In this document: piece after piece, positions 3,817-36,440 of the stretch
Numbering within the stretch: the stretch's first letter is position 1
Layout of the letters: each line of letters opens with the position of its first letter
Origin: Escherichia coli
GTDB lineage: Bacteria; Pseudomonadota; Gammaproteobacteria; Enterobacterales; Enterobacteriaceae
Assembly: GCF_041886205.1 (NCBI RefSeq)
Contig: NZ_CP169029.1
Length of the DNA: 64,000 nt
Direction: 5' to 3' (one strand)
Program-made: the position numbers and the translations under genes
Notes under the pieces: generated by a model
Database searches by the model: none
What the model was told of the DNA's origin: nothing
The model's input: the letters and a program-made list of their open reading frames with translations, nothing else

Positions 3817-4024
3817 TAGGTTAAATCCGTTATTTCTGCTGTCTGCCAGAGTATCAAATATCACCGTGCTAATCAGCTTTAGCGCGACAATTTGGCAGCG
3901 AGTGACAACAGATCATGTCAGATAAAAATGAGATAGTAGTCACATTTTCTTGCACTTTATTCCAGCCAGTTCATAAGTATTTCCGTAAAAAGAACAGCTA
4001 TTTGAAACACCTGAGGGTTTGCTG

Positions 4025-5191
4025 TTGAAACGCCGTCTTATTATTGCTGCTTCTTTGTTCGTTTTTAATTTATCGTCTGGTTTTGCGGCGGAAAACATTC
4101 CTTTTTCACCTCAGCCTCCAGAGATTCATGCCGGGTCCTGGGTATTGATGGATTACACCACCGGTCAGATTCTCACCGCGGGTAATGAGCATCAACAGCG
4201 CAATCCCGCCAGCCTGACAAAGCTGATGACGGGCTATGTCGTGGATCGCGCTATCGATAGTCATCGCATTACGCCAGACGATATTGTCACCGTGGGGCGT
4301 GATGCGTGGGCGAAAGATAATCCGGTGTTTGTCGGTTCTTCACTGATGTTTTTGAAAGAGGGCGATCGCGTATCGGTACGTGATTTAAGCCGAGGTTTAA
4401 TTGTGGATTCCGGAAATGACGCGTGTGTTGCTCTGGCTGACTATATTGCCGGTGGGCAACGGCAGTTTGTTGAAATGATGAACAACTATGCCGAGAAGCT
4501 GCATCTCAAGGATACGCATTTTGAAACAGTGCATGGTCTGGATGCACCTGGCCAGCATAGCTCGGCTTATGATTTAGCTGTGCTTTCTCGCGCTATCATC
4601 CACGGCGAGCCCGAGTTTTATCATATGTACAGTGAGAAAAGTCTCACCTGGAACGGTATCACCCAGCAAAACCGTAACGGATTATTGTGGGATAAAACCA
4701 TGAATGTTGACGGCCTGAAAACGGGTCATACTTCTGGTGCCGGGTTTAATCTCATTGCTTCGGCTGTAGATGGGCAGCATCGTCTCATTGCAGTGATAAT
4801 GGGGGCTGACAGTGCAAAAGGTCGTGAGGAAGAGGCAAGAAAATTACTGCGTTGGGGGCAACAAAACTTTACTACGGTGCAAATTTTGCACCGTGGGAAA
4901 AAGGTCGGAACGGAACGCATCTGGTATGGCGATAAAGAAAATATCGACCTGGGAACGGAACAAGAGTTCTGGATGGTGCTACCGAAAGCCGAAATTCCAC
5001 ATATCAAAGCCAAATATACCCTTGATGGTAAAGAGCTCACCGCGCCAATTAGCGCCCATCAGCGGGTAGGGGAAATTGAACTTTACGACCGTGATAAACA
5101 GGTGGCGCACTGGCCGCTGGTTACCCTGGAATCTGTCGGGGAAGGCAGCATGTTTTCTCGCCTGAGTGATTATTTCCACCATAAGGCCTGA
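4025..5191 (+). CDS. dacD: D-alanyl-D-alanine carboxypeptidase DacD (PBP6b)
   Basis: Signal peptide; SxxK, SGN and KTG motifs; probable TTG start giving 388 aa. Confidence 0.9.
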   Translation: MKRRLIIAASLFVFNLSSGFAAENIPFSPQPPEIHAGSWVLMDYTTGQILTAGNEHQQRNPASLTKLMTGYVVDRAIDSHRITPDDIVTVGRDAWAKDNPVFVGSSLMFLKEGDRVSVRDLSRGLIVDSGNDACVALADYIAGGQRQFVEMMNNYAEKLHLKDTHFETVHGLDAPGQHSSAYDLAVLSRAIIHGEPEFYHMYSEKSLTWNGITQQNRNGLLWDKTMNVDGLKTGHTSGAGFNLIASAVDGQHRLIAVIMGADSAKGREEEARKLLRWGQQNFTTVQILHRGKKVGTERIWYGDKENIDLGTEQEFWMVLPKAEIPHIKAKYTLDGKELTAPISAHQRVGEIELYDRDKQVAHWPLVTLESVGEGSMFSRLSDYFHHKA

Positions 5192-5274
5192 CCTTTCTTT
5201 GCAGCAGACTGGCAGGAGTGCGAGTCTGCTCGCATAATCAACACTCATTCCTTGTGGTTTTAATATTGCAACTA

Positions 5275-5294
5275 TACTGTATATAAAAACAGTA
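5275..5294 (+). promoter_or_regulatory. LexA box (SOS operator) upstream of sbmC
   Basis: TACTGTATATAAAAACAGTA, a perfect CTGT-N8-ACAG palindrome about 15 nt before the sbmC start. Confidence 0.8.
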
Positions 5295-5308
5295 TTAATG
5301 GAGGCGTC

Positions 5309-5782
5309 ATGAACTACGAGATTAAGCAGGAAGATAAACGTACCGTTGCAGGTTTCCATCTCGTTGGCCCGTGGGAGCAGACGGTAAAGAAAGGTTTTGA
5401 GCAGTTGATGATGTGGGTAGATAACAAAAATATTGTGCCGAAGGAGTGGGTTGCTGTCTATTACGACAATCCAGATGAAACACCCGCCGAAAAATTACGC
5501 TGCGACACCGTCGTGACGGTACCGAATAACTTTACGCTCCCCGAAAACAGTGAGGGCGTCATTCTGACAGAAATTTCAGGTGGTCAGTATGCGGTTGCGG
5601 TGGCTCGTGTAGTCGGTGATGATTTTGCTAAACCCTGGTATCAGTTCTTTAATAGCCTCTTGCAGGACAGTGCTTATGAAATGTTACCAAAGCCCTGCTT
5701 CGAGGTTTATTTGAACAATGGCGCGGAAGATGGGTACTGGGATATCGAAATGTATGTTGCGGTGCAGCCAAAACATCACTAA
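5309..5782 (+). CDS. sbmC: DNA gyrase inhibitor SbmC/GyrI
   Basis: 157 aa; preceded by GGAGG RBS and a LexA box. Confidence 0.9.
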
Positions 5783-5980
5783 TTCATCTCAGGGCGGTGT
5801 GTTAACGCGATGACCACTCTTTTTTTTGAAAGCGAAAAGAGTAAGATGCGCCTTTCAATTTTTTCGCTCCTGCCGGGAAATTACACTGTTCCCGGTTTGT
5901 CCGTCGGATAATTCAGAGGCGCGCCTTCTGGCCGACAGATGAGTTATGAGCGCTTTTAATCTTCATTACGGAGTTTCTGC

Positions 5981-7039
5981 GTGCGTGCCGATAAGTCATT
6001 AAGCCCGTTTGAAATCCGGGTATACCGCCATTACCGCATTGTGCATGGTACTCGGGTCGCGCTGGCATTCCTGCTCACTTTTCTCATTATCCGCCTGTTT
6101 ACTATCCCGGAAAGTACCTGGCCGCTGGTCACCATGGTGGTGATTATGGGGCCAATCTCGTTCTGGGGGAACGTTGTCCCTCGCGCATTCGAACGTATTG
6201 GCGGTACGGTGTTGGGGTCGATTTTAGGTCTTATCGCTCTGCAACTGGAGTTAATCTCGTTACCGCTGATGTTAGTCTGGTGCGCGGCGGCTATGTTTCT
6301 TTGCGGTTGGCTGGCGCTGGGCAAGAAACCGTATCAAGGTTTATTGATTGGGGTGACGCTGGCAATTGTTGTTGGTTCCCCGACAGGTGAAATTAATACG
6401 GCGTTATGGCGAAGCGGCGATGTGATCCTCGGCTCTTTACTGGCAATGTTGTTTACCGGTATCTGGCCACAACGGGCGTTCATCCACTGGCGCATTCAAC
6501 TGGCAAAAAGTCTGACCGAGTATAATCGGGTCTATCAATCTGCATTCTCACCGAACTTACTCGAACGCCCGCGTCTGGAAAGCCATCTACAAAAACTCCT
6601 GACCGATGCCGTGAAAATGCGTGGGCTGATTGCGCCCGCCAGCAAAGAAACCCGTATTCCAAAATCGATATATGAAGGTATCCAGACCATTAATCGCAAT
6701 CTGGTTTGTATGCTGGAGTTGCAAATCAATGCATACTGGGCCACGCGCCCCAGCCATTTCGTGTTATTGAACGCGCAAAAACTTCGTGATACCCAGCATA
6801 TGATGCAGCAAATACTGCTGAGCCTTGTTCATGCGCTGTACGAAGGTAATCCGCAGCCGGTTTTTGCCAATACGGAAAAATTGAACGATGCTGTGGAAGA
6901 GCTGCGTCAGTTGCTGAATAACCACCATGACCTGAAGGTTGTGGAAACACCAATCTATGGTTATGTGTGGCTGAACATGGAAACGGCACATCAGCTTGAG
7001 TTGCTATCGAATCTGATTTGCCGGGCCTTGCGCAAATAA
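5981..7039 (+). CDS. yeeA: Inner membrane protein YeeA (FUSC-like)
   Basis: 352-aa ORF with GTG start, hydrophobic N-terminal half; synteny. Confidence 0.85.
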   Translation: MRADKSLSPFEIRVYRHYRIVHGTRVALAFLLTFLIIRLFTIPESTWPLVTMVVIMGPISFWGNVVPRAFERIGGTVLGSILGLIALQLELISLPLMLVWCAAAMFLCGWLALGKKPYQGLLIGVTLAIVVGSPTGEINTALWRSGDVILGSLLAMLFTGIWPQRAFIHWRIQLAKSLTEYNRVYQSAFSPNLLERPRLESHLQKLLTDAVKMRGLIAPASKETRIPKSIYEGIQTINRNLVCMLELQINAYWATRPSHFVLLNAQKLRDTQHMMQQILLSLVHALYEGNPQPVFANTEKLNDAVEELRQLLNNHHDLKVVETPIYGYVWLNMETAHQLELLSNLICRALRK

Positions 7040-14865: not shown

Positions 14866-14941
14866 TGGCTCCTCTGACTGGACTCGAACCAGTGACATAC
14901 GGATTAACAGTCCGCCGTTCTACCGACTGAACTACAGAGGA
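14866..14941 (-). tRNA. asnV: tRNA-Asn (GUU)
   Basis: Reverse complement equals TCCTCTGTAGTTCAGTCGGTAGAACGGCGGACTGTTAATCCGTATGTCACTGGTTCGAGTCCAGTCAGAGGAGCCA. Confidence 0.95.
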
Positions 14942-14959
14942 ATCGTGTGAACGGGGCGC

Positions 14960-14988
14960 ATATTAATGGCAGTGCATGGTGATGTCAA
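14960..14988 (-). promoter_or_regulatory. Sigma70 promoter of tRNA-Asn (TTGACA-17-TAATAT)
   Basis: Consensus -35 and near-consensus -10 about 18 nt upstream of the tRNA 5' end; GC-rich discriminator. Confidence 0.55.
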
Positions 14989-15196
14989 AGGGTGAAATGC
15001 ATTTTTTTGTTTGTTTGCTGTCAATTTCAACAAAGTGGTGAGCTTTCAATCTTATTGGGTAATGAACCATCGTGGTGCATACCCTCCTTTTATAGGGCAG
15101 GGGAACGCGACAGCTGATTAAAGGAGCAAATGACGAATCTATCATAATCTCTTATTTGACAGTTGGTTAGCTTGTACATCAACACCAAAATAAAAC

Positions 15197-15212
15197 TGGC
15201 AAGCATCTTGCA
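15197..15212 (+). promoter_or_regulatory. Sigma54 (-24/-12) promoter of nac
   Basis: TGGCAAGCATCTTGCA (GG-N10-GC) about 55 nt upstream of nac; NtrC-like element ACCATCGTGGTGCAT about 130 nt further upstream. Confidence 0.6.
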
Positions 15213-15267
15213 ATCTGGTTGTAAGTAATGGCGGCACTTGGGCCGATTCTTAAAAACCGGAGGCAAC

Positions 15268-16185
15268 ATGAACTTCAGACGCCTGAAATACTTCGTAAAA
15301 ATTGTAGATATTGGTAGCCTGACCCAGGCTGCTGAAGTATTGCATATCGCACAACCAGCGCTCAGCCAGCAGGTTGCCACACTGGAAGGTGAGTTAAATC
15401 AACAACTTTTGATCCGTACAAAGCGGGGCGTTACACCAACAGACGCCGGAAAAATTCTCTATACCCATGCGCGGGCCATTTTACGTCAGTGTGAACAGGC
15501 CCAACTGGCGGTGCATAACGTTGGTCAGGCATTATCGGGGCAAGTCTCGATTGGCTTTGCACCAGGAACCGCTGCGTCATCCATCACCATGCCCTTATTA
15601 CAGGCGGTTCGCGCTGAATTTCCGGAGATCGTTATCTATCTTCATGAAAATAGTGGTGCAGTGCTTAACGAAAAATTGATAAATCACCAACTCGATATGG
15701 CGGTGATTTATGAGCATTCCCCTGTGGCTGGTGTATCCAGTCAGGCTTTGCTGAAAGAAGATCTTTTTCTGGTAGGAACTCAAGATTGCCCGGGGCAAAG
15801 CGTTGATGTGAATGCTATTGCGCAAATGAACCTCTTTCTCCCCAGTGATTACAGTGCTATTAGACTTCGTGTTGATGAGGCTTTTTCCCTACGGCGACTC
15901 ACGGCAAAAGTTATTGGTGAAATTGAGTCTATTGCCACGCTTACCGCAGCGATTGCCAGCGGCATGGGCGTTGCAGTATTACCCGAATCGGCCGCGCGTT
16001 CGTTATGTGGCGCAGTAAATGGGTGGATGTCACGCATTACCACTCCTTCCATGAGTCTCTCTTTGTCATTAAATTTACCCGCCAGAGCGAACTTATCGCC
16101 ACAGGCACAGGCAGTGAAAGAGTTGTTAATGTCAGTGATTAGTTCTCCAGTGATGGAAAAAAGGCAGTGGCAATTGGTGAGCTAA
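15268..16185 (+). CDS. nac: Nitrogen assimilation control protein Nac (LysR family)
   Basis: 305 aa from MNFRRLKYFVKIVDIGSLTQAAEVLHIAQPALSQQV; sigma54 promoter upstream. Confidence 0.9.
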   Translation: MNFRRLKYFVKIVDIGSLTQAAEVLHIAQPALSQQVATLEGELNQQLLIRTKRGVTPTDAGKILYTHARAILRQCEQAQLAVHNVGQALSGQVSIGFAPGTAASSITMPLLQAVRAEFPEIVIYLHENSGAVLNEKLINHQLDMAVIYEHSPVAGVSSQALLKEDLFLVGTQDCPGQSVDVNAIAQMNLFLPSDYSAIRLRVDEAFSLRRLTAKVIGEIESIATLTAAIASGMGVAVLPESAARSLCGAVNGWMSRITTPSMSLSLSLNLPARANLSPQAQAVKELLMSVISSPVMEKRQWQLVS

Positions 16186-16286
16186 GTGTTATATCGGGAT
16201 GGAATAAGATGCGGGTTTTTATTATTTGTTATGCCGGGCATTAGACTTTAACAATAACGGGAAATCTGAACTGCCCGGAGTTTACC

Positions 16287-17237
16287 GTGAATTTCCAACA
16301 ACTAAAGATAATCCGCGAGGCTGCACGTCAGGATTACAACCTGACAGAGGTTGCGAATATGCTTTTTACCTCACAGTCAGGCGTCAGCCGTCATATTCGG
16401 GAACTGGAGGATGAACTTGGCATCGAAATATTTGTTCGACGAGGTAAGCGACTGCTGGGCATGACTGAACCGGGCAAAGCATTACTGGTCATTGCAGAAC
16501 GTATTCTGAATGAAGCCAGTAATGTTCGTCGGCTTGCAGACCTGTTTACCAACGATACGTCTGGCGTTCTCACTATTGCAACGACGCATACTCAGGCACG
16601 TTATAGCTTGCCAGAGGTCATTAAAGCTTTTCGCGAACTTTTCCCGGAGGTTCGGCTCGAGCTAATCCAGGGGACGCCACAGGAAATTGCGACATTGTTG
16701 CAAAATGGCGAAGCTGATATTGGTATCGCCAGCGAGCGTTTGAGTAATGACCCGCAGCTCGTCGCCTTCCCGTGGTTTCGTTGGCACCATAGTTTGCTTG
16801 TTCCACACGATCATCCCTTGACGCAAATTTCACCATTGACGCTGGAATCAATAGCGAAGTGGCCGTTAATCACTTACCGACAGGGGATTACGGGGCGCTC
16901 ACGTATTGATGACGCATTTGCCCGCAAAGGTTTGCTGGCAGATATTGTATTAAGTGCGCAGGATTCTGATGTCATTAAAACCTATGTTGCTCTTGGGCTT
17001 GGGATCGGATTAGTTGCCGAGCAATCCAGTGGCGAACAAGAGGAAGAGAATTTAATCCGCCTGGATACGCGGCATCTTTTTGATGCTAATACTGTCTGGT
17101 TGGGACTGAAGCGAGGACAACTTCAGCGTAACTATGTCTGGCGCTTTCTGGAACTTTGTAATGCAGGACTGTCAGTTGAGGATATCAAGCGGCAGGTGAT
17201 GGAAAGCAGTGAAGAGGGAATTGATTATCAGATATAG
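16287..17237 (+). CDS. cbl: LysR-family regulator Cbl (sulfonate utilisation)
   Basis: 316 aa LysR-type protein (MNFQQLKIIREAARQDYNLTEVANMLFTSQSGVSRHIRELE...) immediately after nac. Confidence 0.9.
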   Translation: MNFQQLKIIREAARQDYNLTEVANMLFTSQSGVSRHIRELEDELGIEIFVRRGKRLLGMTEPGKALLVIAERILNEASNVRRLADLFTNDTSGVLTIATTHTQARYSLPEVIKAFRELFPEVRLELIQGTPQEIATLLQNGEADIGIASERLSNDPQLVAFPWFRWHHSLLVPHDHPLTQISPLTLESIAKWPLITYRQGITGRSRIDDAFARKGLLADIVLSAQDSDVIKTYVALGLGIGLVAEQSSGEQEEENLIRLDTRHLFDANTVWLGLKRGQLQRNYVWRFLELCNAGLSVEDIKRQVMESSEEGIDYQI

Positions 17238-17242
17238 CAAAA

Positions 17243-17267
17243 ATCCCGCTATAAAAGCGGGCTTTTC
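17243..17267 (+). terminator. Rho-independent terminator after cbl
   Basis: CCCGCT-ataaa-AGCGGG followed by CTTTTC. Confidence 0.6.
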
Positions 17268-17274
17268 AGGAATT

Positions 17275-17350
17275 TGGCTCCTCTGACTGGACTCGAACCA
17301 GTGACATACGGATTAACAGTCCGCCGTTCTACCGACTGAACTACAGAGGA
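17275..17350 (-). tRNA. asnU: tRNA-Asn (GUU)
   Basis: Sequence identical to the other three tRNA-Asn copies. Confidence 0.95.
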
Positions 17351-17366
17351 ATCGTTGTTGAGGCAC

Positions 17367-17394
17367 ATCTTAACGGCGAAAAATCTTTTGTCAA
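17367..17394 (-). promoter_or_regulatory. Sigma70 promoter of tRNA-Asn (TTGACA-16-TAAGAT)
   Basis: Same architecture as the other asn promoters; lies inside the 5' extension of the yeeO track ORF. Confidence 0.5.
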
Positions 17395-17510
17395 ACCCGA
17401 TTTATAAATTCCCCTACTGTTTGCCGTTTCTATCAACAGTTTGTTGCATTTGCAGACAATTTGTTGGCGAAAATCTTTGCAGCTTTGCTGATTCTCCCTC
17501 ATTATTTGAA

Positions 17511-18998
17511 ATGTGGTTTCACTTTCTGCAATTAAGGTCGGCTTTGAATATCTCCTCTGCTTTACGCCAGGTTGTTCACGGCACTCGCTGGCACGCTAAA
17601 CGCAAGAGCTACAAAGTGTTGTTCTGGCGCGAGATAACCCCGCTTGCTGTTCCTATCTTCATGGAGAATGCCTGTGTCCTGTTGATGGGGGTTCTGAGCA
17701 CTTTTCTGGTCAGCTGGCTGGGAAAAGATGCGATGGCCGGCGTGGGATTGGCGGACAGCTTCAATATGGTCATTATGGCTTTTTTTGCTGCTATCGATCT
17801 TGGTACTACTGTCGTTGTGGCATTTAGTCTCGGTAAGCGGGATCGACGACGAGCGAGGGTGGCGACGCGGCAGTCATTGGTGATCATGACGTTGTTTGCC
17901 GTACTGTTGGCAACGCTTATTCATCATTTTGGCGAACAAATTATTGATTTCGTCGCGGGTGATGCCACGACAGAAGTTAAAGCACTGGCGTTGACTTATC
18001 TGGAGCTGACGGTACTCAGTTATCCAGCAGCTGCCATCACTCTTATTGGTAGCGGGGCACTTCGTGGTGCAGGGAATACGAAAATACCGCTATTGATTAA
18101 CGGTAGCCTGAATATTCTTAATATTATTATTAGCGGCATATTGATTTACGGCCTTTTCTCCTGGCCGGGACTGGAATTTGTCGGGGCAGGGCTGGGTTTA
18201 ACCATTTCTCGTTATATTGGCGCAGTTGCAATTTTGTGGGTGCTGGCGATTGGTTTTAATCCTGCGCTAAGGATTTCGTTAAAGAGCTATTTTAAACCGC
18301 TGAATTTTAGCATTATCTGGGAAGTCATGGGGATTGGTATTCCCGCGAGTGTCGAATCAGTGTTATTTACCAGTGGTCGGTTATTAACCCAAATGTTCGT
18401 TGCCGGGATGGGGACCAGTGTTATTGCCGGAAATTTTATCGCGTTTTCAATTGCGGCTCTTATCAACTTACCCGGAAGTGCGCTCGGCTCTGCTTCTACG
18501 ATCATTACAGGCCGAAGGTTGGGGGTAGGGCAGATAGCGCAAGCAGAGATTCAGTTGCGGCATGTGTTCTGGCTTTCCACTCTTGGATTAACGGCCATCG
18601 CCTGGCTAACGGCTCCCTTTGCCGGGGTTATGGCATCGTTTTACACCCAGGATCCACAGGTTAAACATGTCGTTGTGATTCTGATTTGGCTAAATGCTTT
18701 ATTTATGCCTATTTGGTCCGCCTCATGGGTGCTACCCGCTGGATTTAAAGGTGCTCGTGATGCCCGTTACGCCATGTGGGTTTCGATGTTGAGCATGTGG
18801 GGTTGTCGGGTTGTAGTCGGTTATGTGCTGGGAATCATGCTTGGCTGGGGTGTGGTTGGTGTCTGGATGGGAATGTTTGCCGACTGGGCTGTGCGGGCCG
18901 TGCTGTTTTACTGGCGAATGGTTACTGGACGTTGGCTATGGAAATACCCTCGACCCGAGCCGCAAAAGTGTGAAAAAAAGCCAGTTGTGTCGGAATAA
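17511..18998 (+). CDS. yeeO: MATE-family efflux transporter YeeO
   Basis: Track ORF is 547 aa; proposed start at internal ATG (MWFHFLQ...) gives about 495 aa and avoids the asnU promoter; 12-TMS MATE topology. Confidence 0.8.
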   Translation: MWFHFLQLRSALNISSALRQVVHGTRWHAKRKSYKVLFWREITPLAVPIFMENACVLLMGVLSTFLVSWLGKDAMAGVGLADSFNMVIMAFFAAIDLGTTVVVAFSLGKRDRRRARVATRQSLVIMTLFAVLLATLIHHFGEQIIDFVAGDATTEVKALALTYLELTVLSYPAAAITLIGSGALRGAGNTKIPLLINGSLNILNIIISGILIYGLFSWPGLEFVGAGLGLTISRYIGAVAILWVLAIGFNPALRISLKSYFKPLNFSIIWEVMGIGIPASVESVLFTSGRLLTQMFVAGMGTSVIAGNFIAFSIAALINLPGSALGSASTIITGRRLGVGQIAQAEIQLRHVFWLSTLGLTAIAWLTAPFAGVMASFYTQDPQVKHVVVILIWLNALFMPIWSASWVLPAGFKGARDARYAMWVSMLSMWGCRVVVGYVLGIMLGWGVVGVWMGMFADWAVRAVLFYWRMVTGRWLWKYPRPEPQKCEKKPVVSE

Positions 18999-19051
18999 AC
19001 GACAAAATGCAGATTATTTCAGCAAACGATTTCAAATTTAAAAAACAGGCT

Positions 19052-19080
19052 TTGACATTGTGGGTGGGCATCGCTAATAT
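19052..19080 (+). promoter_or_regulatory. Sigma70 promoter of tRNA-Asn (TTGACA-17-TAATAT)
   Basis: CTTTGACATTGTGGGTGGGCATCGCTAATAT, 18 nt upstream of the tRNA. Confidence 0.6.
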
Positions 19081-19098
19081 TCGCCTCGTTCTCACGAT

Positions 19099-19174
19099 TC
19101 CTCTGTAGTTCAGTCGGTAGAACGGCGGACTGTTAATCCGTATGTCACTGGTTCGAGTCCAGTCAGAGGAGCCA
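19099..19174 (+). tRNA. asnW: tRNA-Asn (GUU)
   Basis: 76-nt tRNA-Asn sequence ending ...GAGGAGCCA. Confidence 0.95.
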
Positions 19175-19235
19175 AATTTTAGTTTTGAGACATCTCTATG
19201 AGTCTCAAAACAGTTAAAAAATAAAAATTATTTTT

Positions 19236-19271
19236 ACCCGGTTACCTTGTAAAAAAGTGACCGGGTTTTTT
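19236..19271 (+). terminator. Terminator candidate downstream of tRNA-Asn
   Basis: ACCCGGT...ACCGGGT stem followed by TTTTTT; an additional 10-bp hairpin lies at 19184-19213. Confidence 0.5.
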
Positions 19272-19626
19272 GATTTCTGTGTTTCGTGCGCTTAATCGAG
19301 TCTCACGCTTCAGTGAGCAAATTGTCCCTCCCCAACAGACATCACGATTCGCAAGGTCAAAAACTCTGTTCCATGAAGTACCGTACAAAGATAAAGAGAA
19401 AAATGCCTTATGCGGGATGTCGCTATCGCGTCTTTATCGGGAAACTATGCGTAATTGCCACTTTGCCTTCTGTAATCAGAAAAAGAAGAACTGGAATTTT
19501 AATAAATATTATTTCTCTGGGAACGGGGGGGTATAATCAATATGACGAGTTGAATATTATATTTTTTATAAGAATTATATGAGATTAAAGAAATCTGCCG
19601 TAAAGACAGATTTCTTTAAAAGATAA

Positions 19627-20343
19627 TTAGAGATTTGCGACGTTATGATAAACTTTTTGTACATCGTCGTCATCTTCAAGGGCATCAACAAGCCCTTCAA
19701 AGATTTCTAAATCTTCTGGGGAAAGCTCAACTTCAGATTGAGCAATCATTTCTAATTCTGTTGTTGAGAACTCAGTGATTCCAGCTGCTTTTAGAGCCGC
19801 GATTCCTTTATGAAGGTCAGTAGGTTCAGTATAAATAACAATGTTACCTTCTTCTTCAGTCACATCACGAACATCAACTTCAGCTTCAAGTAAAATTTCA
19901 AAAATATGGTCAGGGTCTGTCCCTTTAAATACAATCACACCCGTATTGTCAAACATATAGCTGACAGAACCTGCCGCTCCGATATTGCCGCCTTTTTTAT
20001 TGAAAATTGTGCGAACGTTAGCAATCGTACGGTTAACATTTGAAGTCAATGTCTCGGCGATAATCATTGAGCCATTAGGACCAAAGCCTTCATAACGTCC
20101 CTGCACGAACGTTTCATCTCCGCCGCCTTTGGCTTTATCAATTGCTTTATCAATAACGTGCTTTGGAACTTGTGCCTGCTTTGCACGTTCAATAACGAAT
20201 TTTAAAGATGTGTTTAATTCTGGATCGGGTTCACCTTGTTTAGCAGCAGCATAGATTTCTACACCGAATTTTGCATAAATTTTAGACGTTGCACCGTCTT
20301 TAGCCGTTTTTTTAGCAACAATATTGGCCCATTTACGTCCCAC
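19627..20343 (-). CDS. yeeN: YebC/PmpR-family transcriptional regulator YeeN
   Basis: 238 aa beginning [27 protein letters not shown]... Confidence 0.9.
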
Positions 20344-20685
20344 TGGAATGATCTCCTCGAAAATTTATTTACATTACTGGTAAATCGTTAACATGTGTTA
20401 ATTCAGCATATTATATCATAACAGGAAAAATCTCGTCTATTAGAAATAAAAATATTCTAAAGCCATAATCTTATATTTAATTTTATAAAAACTTATATTG
20501 TTGGCGGGATTTTTTATAATTGTGTTTTGAAAGCATACTTGCTTTTAATATGTGGAAATCATTAAGACGATAATAAAACTCGTATCCGCCCAAGGAAGCA
20601 AACAGCCCACGATTATTGCAGGCTATTTGCCAGGTGTCTTACTTACTCCTTCACATCTATTTCTGATAAGAAGGTTCAGAACTTA

Positions 20686-22140
20686 TTATCGGAACGGCGG
20701 CTCATTAAAGGTTCGTAATTTACGCGAATGCAGTCGGTCGCCTTCTGCGCGCAGCAAATCGATCGCCCGAATGCCAATTTGCAGATGTTCGGAAATAGCG
20801 CCTTCATAAAAACGGTTAGCCTGGCCGGGAAGTTTAATCTCGCCATGCAACGGTTTATCTGAAACACACAGTAGTGTCCCGTATGGCACGCGGAAACGAT
20901 ATCCTTGCGCGGCAATGGTTGCACTTTCCATATCAATTGCTACGGCCCGGCTTAAGTTAAAACGAAGTGCAGAAGCTGAGTAACGTAATTCCCAGTTCCT
21001 GTCATCTGTGGTTACCACAGTACCAGTACGTAGCCGCTGTTTGACTTCCTCACCGGGCCTGCCGCTCACCAGCTTGGTGGCGTCATAAAGCGCACGTTGC
21101 ACTTCAGCAATGCTCGGAATAGGAATATCGGGCGGCAGAACCGCATCAAGAACGTGGTCATCGCGTAAATAAGCGTGTGCAAGTACATAATCGCCAATGG
21201 CCTGACTTTCACGTAATCCGCCACAGTGACCAATCATCAACCAGACATCCGGGCGTAGCACTGCCAGATGATCGCAGATGGTTTTAGCATTTGACGGTCC
21301 CACGCCAATATTCACCAGAGTAATACCCTGACCATCGGCGGTAATTAAATGCCATGCTGGCATCTGATGTTTTTTCCATGCAAGGTCGGAAATGGCTTCT
21401 TCTGGCGCTTCGGTTTCGGCGGTGATCCAGTTCCCGCCAGCACAAGAAAGGGCAATGTAGGGACTATCAGGATCGAGGATCTGGCTGCATCCCCAACGAA
21501 CGAATTCATCCACATAACGTGTGTAGTTGGTAAACAAGACGAACGGCTGAAAATGTTCAACTGGCGTACCGGTATAATGGCGCAACCGTGCGAGGGAAAA
21601 ATCGACGCGGCGCGCATCAAAATGCGATAGCGGGGAGAATTCAGTTGGATGATAAATGCCGTCTGCAGTTTCATCGCCAATTTGCGCCAGTTCTGTTGTC
21701 GGGAAGTAGCGAGTTAACCCAGCGCTCATTGAGCGATCAAGTGTCAATTCAGAGCCATCGATGACATAAGGATAAGGGATTTCATGCTGCGAGGGTTGCA
21801 CTGAGATATGCGCACCATAATCCTGATACAGCAACGTAAGTTGTTCATTAAGATACGAACGAAAGAGAGTAGGGCGAGTAATCGTGGTGGTGTAGCTGCC
21901 TGCGTGGGTAAAGCGACCAAATGCGCGCGTTTTGGGGGGATTGGTTGTGCTACCGTCCCAGGTTACGGTCAGTGATGGATAGACAAAAAGACCTTGTTTG
22001 CGGGCGTTTTCATCAGGTAATTCGCCACTTGTAATATAGTTGCCAATGGCGTTGCGTAATGCGACTACAGATTGCTCATACAGCGCGTCGAGTTTATCCA
22101 GTGCCTGAGCTGGGGTCAGGCCGGAGCCCTTATTATTCAT
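20686..22140 (-). CDS. amn: AMP nucleosidase
   Basis: 484 aa from internal ATG (MNNKGSGLTPAQALDKLDALYEQ...); the track ORF's 52-codon extension overlaps shiA. Confidence 0.9.
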   Translation of the reverse strand: MNNKGSGLTPAQALDKLDALYEQSVVALRNAIGNYITSGELPDENARKQGLFVYPSLTVTWDGSTTNPPKTRAFGRFTHAGSYTTTITRPTLFRSYLNEQLTLLYQDYGAHISVQPSQHEIPYPYVIDGSELTLDRSMSAGLTRYFPTTELAQIGDETADGIYHPTEFSPLSHFDARRVDFSLARLRHYTGTPVEHFQPFVLFTNYTRYVDEFVRWGCSQILDPDSPYIALSCAGGNWITAETEAPEEAISDLAWKKHQMPAWHLITADGQGITLVNIGVGPSNAKTICDHLAVLRPDVWLMIGHCGGLRESQAIGDYVLAHAYLRDDHVLDAVLPPDIPIPSIAEVQRALYDATKLVSGRPGEEVKQRLRTGTVVTTDDRNWELRYSASALRFNLSRAVAIDMESATIAAQGYRFRVPYGTLLCVSDKPLHGEIKLPGQANRFYEGAISEHLQIGIRAIDLLRAEGDRLHSRKLRTFNEPPFR

Positions 22141-22241
22141 GTGTGTCTCCTGTTCCATACAATTACCGCACATCCGATAGTATGTCACAGAAATGTGAAA
22201 CAAAAGTGTAAGGCGAAGATCGGATGATCTTCGCCAGGCTA

Positions 22242-23558
22242 TCAAGCGCGTTGACTGTCTTTCATCAACAAAGCGGTCATTGCGGAAATCAGGCATCCAG
22301 CCAGCAAATAAATGGCGACGCTATGCCAGTTCCCGGCAAAGTAAGTGATGAGTGCAGCGGCAATAAAAGGTGTAAATCCACCGCCAACCACACTGGCAAC
22401 CTGATAACCGACTCCAGCGCCACTATAGCGATAACTGGCACCAAACATTTCGGTAAACATCGGTTGTTGCACACACACCACCATGTCATGCGCAATGTTT
22501 GCCAGCATTATGGAGAAGAAAACTATCCAGAAAATAGATTGTGCTTCAAGCGCCATAAAGAAAGGAAATGCGCTCAACGTTCCGATTAACGTACCTGTGA
22601 TATAAACCCTACGGCGACCAAAACGATCGGCAAGCCAGGCAAAACAGGGAATTGTCAGGCAGCTTAATCCACCTACCAGCAAACCAATATTAAGGAAAAG
22701 TTCGCGCGGTAGCCCCATATTCTGGGTTGAATAATTAAGTGCAAAGGCAGTAACGATGTACATCGTCAGCAATTCGCACAGTCGTAGCGCAATAATCTTC
22801 AGGAAAGCACCGGGATGTCGTAACAGCGCTTCGATAACCGGGATGCGTTTTTTCGCGGCAGCTTGATAATGTTGCTGTTGTTCAAATTCCGCGGACTCCT
22901 CCATGCCATTGCGCACCCACAATGCTCCCAGTACCAGTACGATGCTAAACAGGAAAGGAATGCGCCAGCCCCAGCTTAAAAACTGTTCGTCAGTCGTCAT
23001 CATACTGATCAATGAAACCAGTCCGGTTGAAAGCAGTAAACCTACACCGTAGCCAACTTGTACACCGCTACTGTAAAAGGCTTTTTTATTTTTCGGTGCA
23101 CTTTCAACGGAAAGCAACGCCGCGCCTCCCCATTCGCCGCCGACTGCAAATCCCTGAATGGCACGCAGTGTCACCAGCAAAATAGGTGCCCACCACCCAA
23201 TGGTCGAGAATGAAGGAAGAATACCAATCAAGGCTGTCGCGATGCCCATCATCCAGACGGTCAGCATTAACATGCGCTTACGTCCCAGTCGGTCGCCAAA
23301 GTGACCGAAAATGACACCGCCGAGCGGACGGAAAAGAAATCCGACGCCAAAGGTAGCAAATGCGGCGAGCGTTCCCATCGCCGGGCTTACTTGCGGGAAA
23401 AACTCGCGATTAAACACCAGTGCGGCGGTGATGCCATAGAGTAAAAAATCATACCAGTCGACGACGGCACCAGCGAAGCTGCCTAACGCAGCTCGTCGGG
23501 CGCGACTTAACGAAAGCGTCCCTTCATCGGGACGAGTGGAGATGAGCGTGGAGTCCAT
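22242..23558 (-). CDS. shiA: Shikimate:H+ symporter ShiA (MFS)
   Basis: 438-aa MFS transporter (MDSTLISTRPDEGTLSLSRARRAALGSFAGAVVDWYDFLLYG...). Confidence 0.9.
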   Translation of the reverse strand: MDSTLISTRPDEGTLSLSRARRAALGSFAGAVVDWYDFLLYGITAALVFNREFFPQVSPAMGTLAAFATFGVGFLFRPLGGVIFGHFGDRLGRKRMLMLTVWMMGIATALIGILPSFSTIGWWAPILLVTLRAIQGFAVGGEWGGAALLSVESAPKNKKAFYSSGVQVGYGVGLLLSTGLVSLISMMTTDEQFLSWGWRIPFLFSIVLVLGALWVRNGMEESAEFEQQQHYQAAAKKRIPVIEALLRHPGAFLKIIALRLCELLTMYIVTAFALNYSTQNMGLPRELFLNIGLLVGGLSCLTIPCFAWLADRFGRRRVYITGTLIGTLSAFPFFMALEAQSIFWIVFFSIMLANIAHDMVVCVQQPMFTEMFGASYRYSGAGVGYQVASVVGGGFTPFIAAALITYFAGNWHSVAIYLLAGCLISAMTALLMKDSQRA

Positions 23559-23872
23559 AATGATCCTGTTTGTACTGTCTTTTTATAATTAGTATGGAAA
23601 AGGTAACTCACATTGCCGTCGATCTATAAACGAACCTTATGAGACTACCTCGACAGAGCGCATCTGCAAATGATTTTATGGCTGATTAGCGGCAACATGA
23701 AAAATTCGATGGAAGATGAAAGCGCAGGAGTTGCTGGTGTTGTTTAAGGATTAAGCAGAGGACCCACAGGTTAGAGATATGAAACATAAAAGTCCGCATA
23801 TGCACAAAATGGCACCCTGATGAGTCTGATAGACTGCATTGCATTATAACCAGTAGGGAGGCGAGGTTAGGT

Positions 23873-23945
23873 ATGTTTTTAGCATCATTGTTGAGACGTA
23901 TTGCATTTAGTTACTACGATTATAAAGCTTATAATTTCAATATTG
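23873..23945 (+). pseudogene. yeeL: yeeL N-terminal 24 codons, separated from the rest by the IS66-family insertion
   Basis: ATG at 23873 with upstream AGGGAGG; frame continues across the 8-bp target duplication into the glycosyltransferase ORF at 26645. Confidence 0.5.
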
Positions 23946-23998
23946 GTAACCGGCTCATTTAAACCGTCTGGTCTGTTTCCTCCGGCTCTACAAAAATA

Positions 23999-24676
23999 AT
24001 GTCCATCATTTTTAATGGACACTATCGTATGAAACACCGGACCTGGATCACTGAAGCTTTACGTCTTCACTTTGAAGAACATTTACCCCGGGTTGTGGCC
24101 GGGCGTCGCCTGGGTGTACCAAAATCAACAGTTTGTAGTATGTTCGTGCGCTTTCGGAGAGCTGGCCTTTCGTGGCCTTTGCCCGCAGGCATGTCGGAGC
24201 AGGAACTTGATGCCTGCCTTTACGGACAATTTTCCACGGTACCAGTCGTACGTCCTGAAAGCACCGTTATATCCGAAGCCCCCGTGGTAAAAAAACGTCC
24301 CCGGCGGCCCAACTTCCCTTATGAGTTTAAAATCGCCTTAGTGGAGCAGTCACTGCAGCCCGGAGCCTGTGTGGCGCAGATCGCCCGGGAAAACGGAATC
24401 AACGATAACCTGCTCTTCAACTGGCGCCATCAATACCGGAAAGGTGGCCTGCTGCCTTCCGGAAAAAATATGCCGGCACTGCTTCCCGTGACGTTAACGC
24501 CGGAGCCGGATAATAAAATCCCGGCCCCCGCACAGGAACCAGAGCAGATAAATACACCGTCCGACAGTCTGTGTTGTGAGCTGGTTCTGCCGGCCGGAAC
24601 TCTCAGGCTTAAAGGTAAACTGACGCCGGCGTTATTACAGACACTTATCCGCGAAATAAAAGGGAGCAGCCACTGA
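23999..24676 (+). CDS. IS66-family accessory protein (TnpA-like, HTH); start codon uncertain
   Basis: C-terminal half ...GACVAQIARENGINDNLLFNWRHQYRKG... resembles IS66 Orf1; stop overlaps the next start (ATGA). Confidence 0.7.
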   Translation: MSIIFNGHYRMKHRTWITEALRLHFEEHLPRVVAGRRLGVPKSTVCSMFVRFRRAGLSWPLPAGMSEQELDACLYGQFSTVPVVRPESTVISEAPVVKKRPRRPNFPYEFKIALVEQSLQPGACVAQIARENGINDNLLFNWRHQYRKGGLLPSGKNMPALLPVTLTPEPDNKIPAPAQEPEQINTPSDSLCCELVLPAGTLRLKGKLTPALLQTLIREIKGSSH

Positions 24677-25023
24677 TGATATCTCTCCCTGCAGGTTCGC
24701 GTATCTGGCTGGTTGCAGGTATCACCGATATGCGAAATGGCTTTAACGGCCTGGCATCAAAAGTTCAGAACGTCCTGAAGGATGACCCGTTCTCCGGACA
24801 CCTGTTCATCTTCCGCGGACGCCGGGGTGACCAGATAAAAGTGTTGTGGGCTGACAGTGACGGACTGTGCCTCTTCACCAAACGCCTGGAGCGGGGCCGC
24901 TTCGTCTGGCCAGTCACCCGTGACGGCAAGGTGCACCTTACTCCGGCTCAGTTATCCATGCTTCTTGAAGGTATCAACTGGAAGCACCCGAAACGAACGG
25001 AACGCGCTGGAATCCGCATATAA
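24676..25023 (+). CDS. tnpB: IS66-family TnpB
   Basis: 115 aa: MISLPAGSRIWLVAGITDMRNGFNGLASKVQNVL... Confidence 0.85.
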   Translation: MISLPAGSRIWLVAGITDMRNGFNGLASKVQNVLKDDPFSGHLFIFRGRRGDQIKVLWADSDGLCLFTKRLERGRFVWPVTRDGKVHLTPAQLSMLLEGINWKHPKRTERAGIRI

Positions 25024-25042
25024 CCCGTTGTAAAGTGAGGAT

Positions 25043-26614
25043 ATGGACACCTCACTTGCTCATGAGAACGCCCGCCTGCGGGCACTGTTGCAGACGCAAC
25101 AGGACACCATCCGCCAGATGGCTGAATACAACCGCCTGCTCTCACAGCGGGTGGCGGCTTATGCTTCCGAAATCAACCGGCTGAAGGCGCTGGTTGCGAA
25201 ACTGCAACGTATGCAGTTCGGTAAAAGCTCAGAAAAACTTCGTGCAAAAACCGAACGGCAGATACAGGAAGCACAGGAGCGAATCAGCGCACTTCAGGAA
25301 GAAATGGCGGAAACGCTGGGTGAGCAATATGACCCGGTACTGCCATCCGCCCTGCGCCAGTCTTCAGCCCGTAAACCGTTACCGGCCTCACTTCCCCGTG
25401 AAACCCGGGTTATCCGGCCGGAAGAGGAATGCTGTCCTGCCTGTGGTGGTGAACTCAGTTCTCTGGGATGTGATGTGTCAGAGCAACTGGAGCTTATCAG
25501 CAGCGCCTTTAAGGTTATCGAAACACAACGTCCGAAACAGGCCTGTTGCCGGTGCGACCATATCGTGCAGGCACCAGTACCTTCAAAACCCATTGCACGC
25601 AGTTATGCCGGAGCGGGGCTTCTGGCCCATGTTGTCACCGGGAAATATGCAGACCATCTGCCGTTATACCGCCAGTCAGAAATATACCGTCGTCAGGGAG
25701 TGGAGCTGAGCCGTGCCACACTGGGGCGCTGGACAGGTGCTGTTGCTGAACTGCTGGAGCCGCTGTATGACGTCCTGCGCCAGTATGTGCTGATGCCCGG
25801 TAAAGTCCATGCTGATGATATCCCCGTCCCGGTCCAGGAGCCGGGCAGCGGTAAAACCCGGACAGCCCGGCTGTGGGTCTACGTCCGTGATGACCGTAAC
25901 GCCGGTTCACAGATGCCCCCGGCGGTCTGGTTCGCGTACAGTCCGGACCGGAAAGGTATCCATCCACAAAATCACCTGGCCGGTTACAGCGGTGTGCTTC
26001 AGGCCGATGCTTACGGTGGTTACCGGGCGTTATACGAATCCGGCAGAATAACGGAAGCCGCGTGTATGGCTCATGCCCGGAGAAAAATCCACGATGTGCA
26101 TGCAAGAGCGTCCACCTACATCACCACGGAAGCCCTGCAGCGTATCGGTGAACTGTATGCCATCGAGGCAGAGGTCCGGGGCTGTTCAGCAGAACAGCGT
26201 CTGGCGGCAAGAAAAGCCAGAGCCGCGCCACTGATGCAGTCACTGTATGACTGGATACAGCAACAGATGAAAACACTGTCGCGTCACTCAGATACGGCAA
26301 AAGCGTTCGCATACCTGCTGAAACAGTGGGATGCACTGAACGTGTACTGCAGTAATGGCTGGGTGGAAATCGACAACAACATCGCAGAGAACGCCTTACG
26401 GGGAGTGGCCGTAGGCCGGAAAAACTGGATGTTCGCGGGTTCCGACAGCGGTGGTGAACATGCGGCGGTGTTGTACTCGCTGATCGGCACATGCCGTCTG
26501 AACAATGTGGAGCCAGAAAAGTGGCTGCGTTACGTCATTGAACATATCCAGGACTGGCCGGCAAACCGGGTACGCGATCTGTTGCCCTGGAAAGTTGATC
26601 TGAGCTCTCAGTAA
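25043..26614 (+). CDS. IS66-family transposase TnpC
   Basis: 523 aa with leucine-zipper N-terminus, CxxC zinc-finger motifs and DDE core; C-terminus [16 protein letters not shown]. Confidence 0.9.
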
Positions 26615-26644
26615 ATATCAATACGGTTCTGACGAGTCGCTTAC

Positions 26645-27632
26645 CAATATTGAAAAAACAGACTTTGTTGTCATCCATATTCCCGATCAGATTGGCGATG
26701 CTATGGCCATCTTTCCTGTTATTCGGGCGCTTGAATTGCATAAAATTAAGCATCTTTTAATTGTAACGTCGACAATTAATTTAGAAGTCTTTAATGCGCT
26801 TAAACTTGAACAGACTAAATTAACATTAGTCACAATGACTATGCAGGATCACGCAACATTAAAAGAAATAAAAGATTTAGCAAAGAACATAACACAGCAA
26901 TACGGTACGCCGGATCTTTGCATTGAGGGGATGCGTAAAAAGAACCTGAAAACGATGTTATTTATCAGTCAGTTGAAAGCAAAAACGAATTTTCAGGTTG
27001 TTGGTATAACCATGAATTGCTTCTCCCCTTTGTGCAAGAACGCGTCCCGTATGGATCAGAAACTCCGGGCTCCCGTACCTATGACATGGGCATTTATGAT
27101 GCGTGAGGCGGGTTTTCCAGCAGTCAGGCCAATATATGAATTGCCACTAAGTGAGGATGTACTCGATGAGGTGCGCGAGGAAATGCGATCGTTAGGATCT
27201 TACATTGCGTTCAATTTAGAAGGTAGCTCGCAGGAACGTACATTTTCATTATCGATTGCAGAAAATCTAATAGCAAAAATTTAAAGTGAAACAGATATAC
27301 CAATAGTGATCGTTCATGGACCCAAAGGTGAAGATAAAGCCAGGGCATTAGTGGATTGTTATAATAATGTCTACCGTTTATCCTTACCACCCTCGATTAA
27401 ACGTTCAGCAGCAATCATAAAAGATGCTTATATCGCAATAACTCCTGACACCTCAATATTACATATGGCAAGTGCCTATAATACCCCTGTTGTTGCAATT
27501 TATGCTGATTACAAAACGCGATGGCCCGCAATGGCCGATGTCTCGGAGTCAGTCGTCGTTGGGCAAAAAATTGACAATATAAGTCTGGATGAATTCGCAA
27601 AGGCATTAAAAAGTGTTTTGGCGAGAATATGA
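26645..27632 (+). pseudogene. yeeL: Glycosyltransferase family 9 (heptosyltransferase-like) pseudogene: IS-interrupted plus in-frame TAA
   Basis: N-terminus ...KTDFVVIHIPDQIGDAMAIFPVIRAL; C-terminal ...ITPDTSILHMASAYNTPVVAIYA motif; track ORFs 26703-27284 and 27306-27632 are in the same frame separated by TAA at 27282. Confidence 0.75.
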
Positions 27633-27842
27633 GACAGTACTTATGCATAGTAATGCCGATCTGTTATGAACGGTGGTGTCATCAATACTCTGAGGCTGGT
27701 CAATCATCACAGAAAACCAGCCTTTAGATCAAAGCAGTACTCACCGAAAATGATCATAGTCACATCGAACGCGATTCTGGCGGTGCCGCATTTTTATTTA
27801 TTCATTTTCTGTGAGAGAAGGGCTAGTTCTGTAGAGGGAATG

Positions 27843-27874
27843 TAAAAAAGAGTGCCCCGAATGGAACACTCTTT
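27843..27874 (-). terminator. Rho-independent terminator after yeeJ
   Basis: AGAGTGTTCC...GGGGCACTCT hairpin followed by T6 on the minus strand. Confidence 0.6.
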
Positions 27875-27893
27875 AAGAAATTATAACGGAAAA

Positions 27894-34970
<7,077 letters not shown>

Positions 34971-35283
34971 GCTTACCTTCCCTGAACGAGCTAACATAAA
35001 TGCGCCCTTTCTAGCACAGCGAAAAAATGTAAATACTGATAGCAATATGATTGAAAATTAATAACTTTTCGTTAGGCAGTTTTGGGTGTGAGTTGCAAGA
35101 GGGGAGACTACTGAATAACTCAAGTTTTATAATCGAGGGGAAAATGGTGATGGCGTTCATAGCAAAACGCCCTCAACCATAAAGGTCGAGGGCGCTTAAG
35201 ATGTTAAAAACCCGCTATCCGTTAAAAAACAATGTTCAACTAAGGTCAGTGACATTGCGCTAAAAAAGCGAATTATTAGAATT

Positions 35284-35359
35284 TGGCTCCTCTGACTGGA
35301 CTCGAACCAGTGACATACGGATTAACAGTCCGCCGTTCTACCGACTGAACTACAGAGGA
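35284..35359 (-). tRNA. asnT: tRNA-Asn (GUU)
   Basis: Identical 76-nt tRNA-Asn sequence. Confidence 0.95.
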
Positions 35360-35377
35360 ATCGTGTGAACGGGGCGA

Positions 35378-35406
35378 ATATTACTTAGCGGTACCTTGTC
35401 TGTCAA
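35378..35406 (-). promoter_or_regulatory. Sigma70 promoter of tRNA-Asn (TTGACA-17-TAATAT)
   Basis: Same architecture and flank (AATCGTGTGAACGGGGCG) as the asnV promoter. Confidence 0.55.
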
Positions 35407-35459
35407 CACTAAATTTCATAAGTCATTTCAATTGGTTAATTAATCTGCAAAGTTGTTAA

Positions 35460-36257
35460 TTAATGAACATTCGTCGCCGAAAACGAGTCTGTATCATTAG
35501 CGTGATGCAGTCTCTGCAAAGGATCTTGTTGATAAAATTGGCAGAAACGTTGCCACAATGAAGGGAAACGAGGAGCAAAAAGTTCTGGGGCGCTAAAGAA
35601 ATATTCAGAAAGTACGGCAAAACATTCAGCAGGATCGCTGGCTGCATAAGCATCAATGCTCGCCGCATTCTCGCCAACCAATTCGATTTCTTCCTGAATG
35701 TTGTTCATTGCAGCATGAAGATCGTGTTCCCAGCCAGCAACCTCACGCAACGGAATAAAGGGAACTCCGCTGGCGCGATCGCCGTTACGGGTGTCCAGCT
35801 TATGAGCGACTTCATGAATAATCAGGTTAAAACCAGAAGCATCAAAAGAATCTTGTATATCCAACCAGTTCAAAACGATAGGCCCTTGCTGCCAGCTCTG
35901 ACCTGACTGAACAATACGTTGGTTATGCACCAGACCGATATCGTCTTCCCATTCATCATCGACCACAAATGGCGCAGGATAAATTAAGACTTCATGAAAA
36001 CCATCCAGCCATTCCAGTCCTAACTCCAGAACGGGTAGGCAAAATAGAAGTGCTATCCGGCAGCTTCTTAATGAATCCAGTTCAAAGCCCTGTAAAGGAA
36101 CAAGCCGCTTTTGCTGTAAAAAACGTTCGGCAAGAGTGACTAATTTGCTTTGTTCCTGTTCCGTCAGACACGTTAAAAGGGGGATCGATAGTGCTTCCTG
36201 CCAGGGAAGGGCAGTTTGATGTGCTGATTCTTGTACTTTCCAGGGCCACTTAATCAT
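35460..36257 (-). CDS. mtfA: Mlc titration factor A (zinc-dependent peptidase family)
   Basis: 265 aa from [19 protein letters not shown]...; HEVAH zinc motif. Confidence 0.88.
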
Positions 36258-36350
36258 CGTTTTGCTCGCAAACTCGTCACTTGAACAAAATTGCACGGAC
36301 AGGGACTGTTAAAATGCCAAATTTCCTGGCATCATGGCAACCATCTGAAC

Positions 36351-36440
36351 GGAGAGATGCCGGAGCGGCTGAACGGACCGGTCTCGAAAACCGGAGTAGG
36401 GGCAACTCTACCGGGGGTTCAAATCCCCCTCTCTCCGCCA
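36351..36440 (+). tRNA. serU: tRNA-Ser (CGA)
   Basis: GGAGAGATGCCGGAGCGGCTGAACGGACCGGTCTCGAAAACCGG...CTCTCCGCCA; long variable arm, anticodon loop CUCGAAA. Confidence 0.93.

Follow-up and report, generated by a model that had tools for sequence, protein, structure and literature searches.

Published regulation of sbmC and of promoters with the same LexA box

The closest described counterpart of the site analysed here is the promoter of sbmC (gyrI) in Escherichia coli K-12, where the UV-induced genes sbmC and umuD carry the same upstream 20-mer, TACTGTATATAAAAACAGTA (PMC3009722 Table 4). The umuDC operator, which is among the strongest chromosomal LexA sites, is therefore letter for letter the sbmC box, although it serves another gene in another promoter context and has no CRP-S site. 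Induction by AZT was reported as 5.7-fold for K-12 sbmC, with a dependence on LexA cleavage (lexA3) of 9.5-fold and a heterology index (HI) of 2.8, while umuD was induced 56-fold (PMC11228462 Table 1). The HI published for umuD in the same source, 2.1, differs from that of sbmC despite the identity of the two 20-mers (PMC3009722), a gap which may come from scoring that depends on the flanks or on the orientation of the site. In Salmonella, the response of sbmC to nalidixic acid was a 3.55-fold induction, and the gene carries a single box, of HI 6.32 (PMC8072944 Table 1).

Other regulators have also been described for this promoter. By qPCR, K-12 sbmC was found to depend on CRP, cAMP and Sxy, through a class I mechanism (PMC1635313); according to the same study, sbmC has no homologue in H. 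influenzae and its Sxy dependence was predicted from the CRP-S motif alone. The core of this 22-bp CRP-type motif, TGCGA-N6-TCGCA with C6 and G17 and thus TGCGA in the place of TGTGA, is shared with the CRP-S promoters of ppdD and yrfD, whereas sbmC is additionally gated by LexA. Biphasic and possibly alternative-sigma behaviour of the sbmC promoter has been reported (PMC5999292), and H-NS and RpoS are named as regulators of sbmC in the title of Oh et al. 2001, as cited in PMC6231494.

Organization of the sbmC locus

The window, i.e. the whole 64 kb stretch of DNA that was analysed, carries sbmC on the + strand at 5309..5782, encoding a DNA gyrase inhibitor of 157 aa. The assignment is based on the open reading frame, on the RefSeq annotation and on an equivalog HMM, NCBIfam NF007451 (SbmC), which was matched over residues 1-157/157 with 303.2 bits (cut-off 179, E 4e-91). 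The gene upstream, on the same strand, is dacD (4025..5191; NF008489 equivalog, 846 bits), with its stop codon 83 nt upstream of the operator. The RefSeq annotation gives dacD a length of 1167 nt, and the mechanically called open reading frame begins at 4019. The gene order sbcB–dacD–sbmC–yeeA is the standard one, and RefSeq likewise places sbmC between dacD and yeeA. A stretch of 201 bp over the dacD–sbmC junction was matched in 5417 of 5426 complete E. coli genomes, with 95–100% identity, and about 290 E. coli genomes have no contiguous match across the dacD–sbmC spacer. A Shine-Dalgarno sequence, GGAGG, is situated at 5300..5304 (+ strand), 4 nt 5' of the ATG; it is invariant or nearly so across the orthologues, and GGGGG replaces it in some E. 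coli strains.

Past the dacD stop codon a stem-loop can be folded at 5200..5234 (+ strand), with an MFE of -22.9 kcal/mol and a z-score of -3.84 in comparison with shuffled sequences. Its 3' arm overlaps the CRP-S site, and no T-run follows it. In Leclercia the stem shows an apparently compensatory change, with GCAGGCT/AGCCTGC compared with GCAGACT/AGTCTGC. The stretch 4900..6100 had no match in Rfam at E<=1, so that no known RNA element could be assigned to the conserved spacer. Over 5150..5350, the window differs from ATCC 8739 only by one T in the T-run past the dacD stop. This run (5193..5200) reads CTTTCTTTG here, one T fewer than the CTTTCTTTTG found in 9/9 other sampled E. coli sequences, and either a rare variant or a sequencing error in the homopolymer may account for the shorter form.

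With regard to the wider surroundings, the first 25 kb of the window match E. coli chromosomes at 99.4%, in two to three pieces, and the matching strains have annotated IS elements. Four tRNA-Asn(GTT) genes (14866, 17275, 19099 and 35284) and one tRNA-Ser(CGA) gene (36351) are located within 14866..36440 of the window.

Identification and scoring of the LexA box

The letters at 5275..5294 read TACTGTATATAAAAACAGTA. This is the LexA operator (SOS box) of sbmC, an imperfect palindrome of the gammaproteobacterial CTG-N10-CAG type, and its end is 14 nt upstream of the sbmC ATG at 5309; the core CTGT-N8-ACAG occupies 5277..5292. The K-12 sbmC box is identical and has the same 14 nt to the ATG, the same dacD and yeeA neighbours and, upstream, the same CRP-S site. 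Only single-base differences were seen in the flanks (A at 5265 here, T in K-12; T at 5296 here, C in K-12).

In comparison with the consensus TACTG(TA)5CAGTA, 18 of the 20 positions of the box agree. Both arms, TACTGTAT and ACAGTA, are perfect, and the two mismatches are in the spacer, where positions 12 and 14 are A and not T. No other sequence in the 64 kb window comes within three mismatches of this consensus, and such a match was found in 0 of 100 dinucleotide-preserving shuffles. The core alone is less specific, with two copies in the window against 0.62 expected; the second copy, at 26182, falls outside the eight top matrix scores of the window.

The scores were obtained from leave-one-out log-odds matrices built on 18 published E. 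coli LexA sites (PMC3009722 Table 4). With sbmC left out of the matrix, its box reached 27.94 of a possible 28.64 bits, and with both sbmC and umuD left out it reached 26.96 of 28.20 bits. The scores of the 18 known sites extend from 15.7 to 27.9 bits, and the sbmC box ranks first or second. It also lies above the best score of every shuffled window (n=200; mean 14.3, sd 2.1, max 22.6). The HI computed for the box was 0.58-0.95, which is not comparable with the published HI of 2.8 owing to a different training set.

The earlier note had described the box as a perfect LexA operator and had proposed a weight-matrix score as a check, a low value of which would have spoken against it. The score proved to be close to the maximum. 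The description holds in that the site is genuine and top-scoring and that both arms are perfect; taken over the full consensus it is too strong, the box agreeing at 18/20 positions with spacer positions 12 and 14 off consensus.

The next unrelated matrix hit of the window, TCTTGTATATCCAACCAGTT at 35851..35870, scored 18.6 bits. It has no CTG, it lies inside a minus-strand open reading frame of 278 aa and its score exceeds the mean of the shuffles but stays within their range; it was rejected as a LexA site and is most likely due to chance.

Conservation of the box in E. coli and related genera

The window was aligned with nine sampled E. coli sequences whose box is free of insertions. Positions 1-19 of the box are invariant and position 20 is A or G, and in the same alignment the flanking spacer varies at 5265, 5267, 5272 and 5296 as well as in the Shine-Dalgarno sequence. 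For the comparison across genera, 69 loci encoding SbmC relatives were sampled, with one genome per species. In 63 of the 69 species the LexA matrix gave a site with a score of 15 bits or more, the end of which is separated from the sbmC ATG by 14-24 nt, and the control stretches of the same 69 loci gave a maximum of 7.4 bits. Among 64 distinct promoters the invariant box positions are T4, G5, A7, C16, A17 and G18. Judged from these alignments, the sbmC box is under strong purifying selection.

The sbmC boxes of Salmonella, Citrobacter, Enterobacter, Kluyvera, Klebsiella and Raoultella are found in the same place relative to the Shine-Dalgarno sequence and the ATG, with ACAGT invariant and with a CRP-type site upstream. 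In Salmonella and Citrobacter the box reads CACTGTATATAAATACAGTG, the spacer and outer bases of which are unlike those in the window, and in Klebsiella and Raoultella it is located 20-24 nt from the ATG. The two half-sites do not behave alike. The C of the left CTG is retained in only 48% of the 64 promoters, being replaced by G in the Enterobacter clade (TAGTG) and by A in the Klebsiella/Raoultella clade (ATATG or GCATG). Enterobacter, Lelliottia, Leclercia, Klebsiella and Raoultella have a left half-site without the canonical CTG, whereas the right half-site ACAGT is invariant in these genera. The drift of the left half-site may reflect its double duty as a -10 hexamer, and this difference between an invariant right half-site and a drifting left one is a small comparative point of interest for the Enterobacteriaceae.

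One sampled strain, Escherichia sp. MOD1-EC7003, has the LexA box deleted (…aacatactg|attggaggcgtcATG), over a part equivalent to about 5280..5297 of the window. Its sbmC match covers residues 1-82 only, which suggests a decay of both operator and gene in this lineage.

Promoter architecture

The -10 region can be placed at 5273..5280 (+ strand), either as TATACT (5273..5278, with a C before it at 5272) or as TACTGT (5275..5280); both hexamers overlap the left arm of the box. A candidate -35 hexamer, TTGTGG, is found at 5252..5257 (+ strand), with a spacer of 15 bp to TATACT and of 17 bp to TACTGT. The first combination would have a short spacer and the second a weak -10 hexamer. A TTGNNG element 15-18 bp upstream of the hexamer is conserved in Escherichia, Citrobacter, Salmonella, Enterobacter and Kluyvera. 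Transcription would start in the zone 5283..5288 (+ strand), which is inside the operator, at box positions 9-14.

Three independent, indirect lines of evidence bear on this placement. Firstly, the box is preceded at -3, -2 and -1 by T, T and A in 84%, 94% and 83% of 64 distinct orthologous promoters. This TTA falls outside the LexA consensus, and other E. coli LexA sites do not conserve it; together with A at box position 2 (80%) and T at position 4 (100%) it gives TA-N-A-N-T across the genera. Secondly, the CRP-S site TGCGAGTCTGCTCGCA (TGCGA-N6-TCGCA; PMC1635313) is situated at 5219..5234. Its centre, at 5226.5, precedes the box by 48.5 nt here and by 48.5–51.5 nt in the main clade. Since a class I site is centred at −61.5, the transcription start is expected at box positions 11-14, which in the window corresponds to about 5288. 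Thirdly, the 5' end of the UV-induced K-12 transcript was mapped on tiling arrays 100 nt past AGGCCTGACC, i.e. at about 5283 of the window (PMC3009722 Table 8, 7-nt probe spacing). All three lines agree with a -10 hexamer on the left arm and a start inside the box, and the overlap of box and -10 region noticed in the earlier note is supported by them as a probable arrangement. The transcription start site supplement of Kim et al. 2012 has only one start in this region, with two reads, 571 nt upstream and within dacD; for a promoter under repression this carries no information.

The CRP-S core itself is well conserved. Among 66 orthologous promoters it matches TGYGA-N6-TCRCA exactly in 52 and with at most one mismatch in 62, and the TGCGAGTCTGCTCGCA palindrome is conserved across about 20 genera. 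In Klebsiella and Raoultella the CRP-type site has the form TGTGA-N6-GCACA and lies 35.5-37.5 nt from the box, a class II-like spacing. Two other assignments of this block were considered and rejected. As a second -10 (TGCGA...TCGCA/CATAAT), it is accounted for by the published CRP-S site (PMC1635313). As a terminator hairpin, it forms a structure that is thermodynamically real, but the block is conserved even where the 5' arm is lacking, as in Salmonella and Kluyvera.

Proposed mode of regulation

The stretch 5275..5294 is the textbook SOS box of sbmC, already characterised in K-12. It very probably serves the sbmC (gyrI) promoter as its canonical LexA operator, lying over the predicted -10 region and start and placing the gene under a LexA gate. 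A LexA dimer would bind both half-sites of the 20-bp box, TACTGT and ACAGTA, and as the box would span the -10 hexamer and the transcription start, RNA polymerase would be kept off the promoter. We infer occlusion as the route of repression from this geometry, as we do the exact -10 hexamer and start position. After DNA damage, activated RecA would lead to self-cleavage of LexA and the operator would be vacated, upon which transcription of sbmC would begin, its leader being very short (about 20-25 nt). LexA would be the gate and not the only input: class I activation at the CRP-S site by CRP-cAMP together with Sxy would also be needed, and according to the literature the promoter depends on sigma-S as well. 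These additional inputs would account for the roughly tenfold lower induction of sbmC, compared with umuDC, from an identical box.

The earlier note's main claim, that sbmC here retains SOS regulation, is well founded in so far as the box is identical to that of K-12, a full-length sbmC follows it and LexA-dependent induction has been published for K-12; what the window itself contributes is the cis-element. All textbook elements of the promoter (LexA operator, CRP-S site and Shine-Dalgarno sequence) are unaltered, and SOS and competence/starvation control of the gyrase inhibitor is therefore to be expected in this strain, as in K-12. This can be of some relevance to how well gyrase poisons, for instance microcin B17 and quinolones, are tolerated.

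A different weighting of the inputs, with an intact operator but a functionally minor SOS control and with expression set mainly by CRP-cAMP/Sxy and by sigma-S/H-NS, is unlikely. The tenfold weaker induction of sbmC (5.7-fold, against 56-fold for umuD with the identical 20-mer) and the modest 3.55-fold response in Salmonella would fit it, as would the reported stationary-phase and biphasic behaviour and the naming of H-NS and RpoS in the title of Oh et al. 2001. However, a LexA-cleavage dependence of 9.5-fold is not minor, and the box is under strong purifying selection. Control by several inputs is moreover compatible with a real LexA gate, and in this form the proposal refines the LexA-gated promoter and does not contradict it.

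It is considerably less probable that transcription starts from an upstream promoter with CATAAT at 5233..5238 as its -10, in which case the LexA box would lie about 35-55 nt past the start and act as a roadblock. The sigma-70 consensus scan of 5100..5950 called no + strand promoter over the box; its hits were a minus-strand TTAATA-16-TATAGT and, on the + strand, exactly this upstream combination, CTGGCA-18-CATAAT, with 9/12 positions, and the CA-TAAT block is strongly conserved across genera. That conservation is, however, explained by the block being the right half of the CRP-S site (TCGCA/TCACA) with its adjacent bases. The class I mechanism (PMC1635313) puts the start about 61.5 nt past the CRP-S centre, inside the box, and the UV-induced 5' end at about 5283 is more than five probe spacings away from 5245. 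An upstream start would also leave the conservation of TTA just 5' of the box unexplained.

That the box is a chance AT-rich palindrome, or is conserved solely as a promoter element or hairpin with no role for LexA, is hardly credible: the region is AT-rich, the single-stranded box can form a weak hairpin (-6 kcal/mol) and the left arm doubles as the -10, but the box score was reached by no shuffle, the right arm ACAGT is without a promoter role and yet invariant over about 20 genera with the CTG-N10-CAG spacing kept, and LexA-cleavage-dependent induction is published for the identical site (PMC11228462).

Mobile elements at LexA boxes

In E. coli 97.3, a group II intron adjoins the sbmC leader exactly at the edge of the box, and the 5' end of the intron adjoins a different LexA box, which comes from a prophage-like region. 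The intron is 1909 nt long and matches Rfam group-II-D1D4-6 with 186.6 bits; the protein encoded by it has an RT domain, and no endonuclease domain was detected in it. It is present at 267 places in 215 of the 5426 E. coli genomes, mostly on plasmids. In 9/9 sampled copies the insertion point of the intron separates positions 19 and 20 of a strong LexA box. The empty sites reconstructed for the sampled introns scored 20.7–28.3 bits, whereas a score of at least 20 bits was reached by only 20 of 89,636 20-mers in the sampled intron loci. The boxes that are occupied are those of chromosomal umuDC, of plasmid umuD and Y-family polymerase operons and of genes of S24 peptidases. At least seven distinct boxes are occupied, which indicates independent insertions.

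In five assemblies of four E. coli strains, searches with chimeric junction queries located the intron in this very sbmC operator, both flanks being intact; the 3' junction of the intron with the sbmC operator was found in seven genomes. The sbmC box in the window is empty of the intron. We regard it as reasonably probable that the operator is, in addition, a homing site of an endonuclease-less group II intron which specifically recognises strong LexA boxes and inserts at TACTG-N10-CAGT^A/G, a site unoccupied here. As part of the same reading, and with equal confidence, insertion in some contexts (sbmC and chromosomal umuDC) would put the retroelement downstream of an SOS-controlled promoter. 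A literature search for group II introns together with the SOS box or LexA returned no description of such targeting, which may have been published elsewhere. If it is indeed unreported, LexA boxes would represent a new target class for bacterial retroelements, and the position downstream of an SOS promoter could offer a route for SOS control of intron expression.

A different type of element was observed in E. coli FCI29, where an ISEc53 (ISL3-like) interrupts the sbmC LexA box within its AT-rich spacer, after the equivalent of about 5288. This insertion splits the operator and parts sbmC from its promoter.
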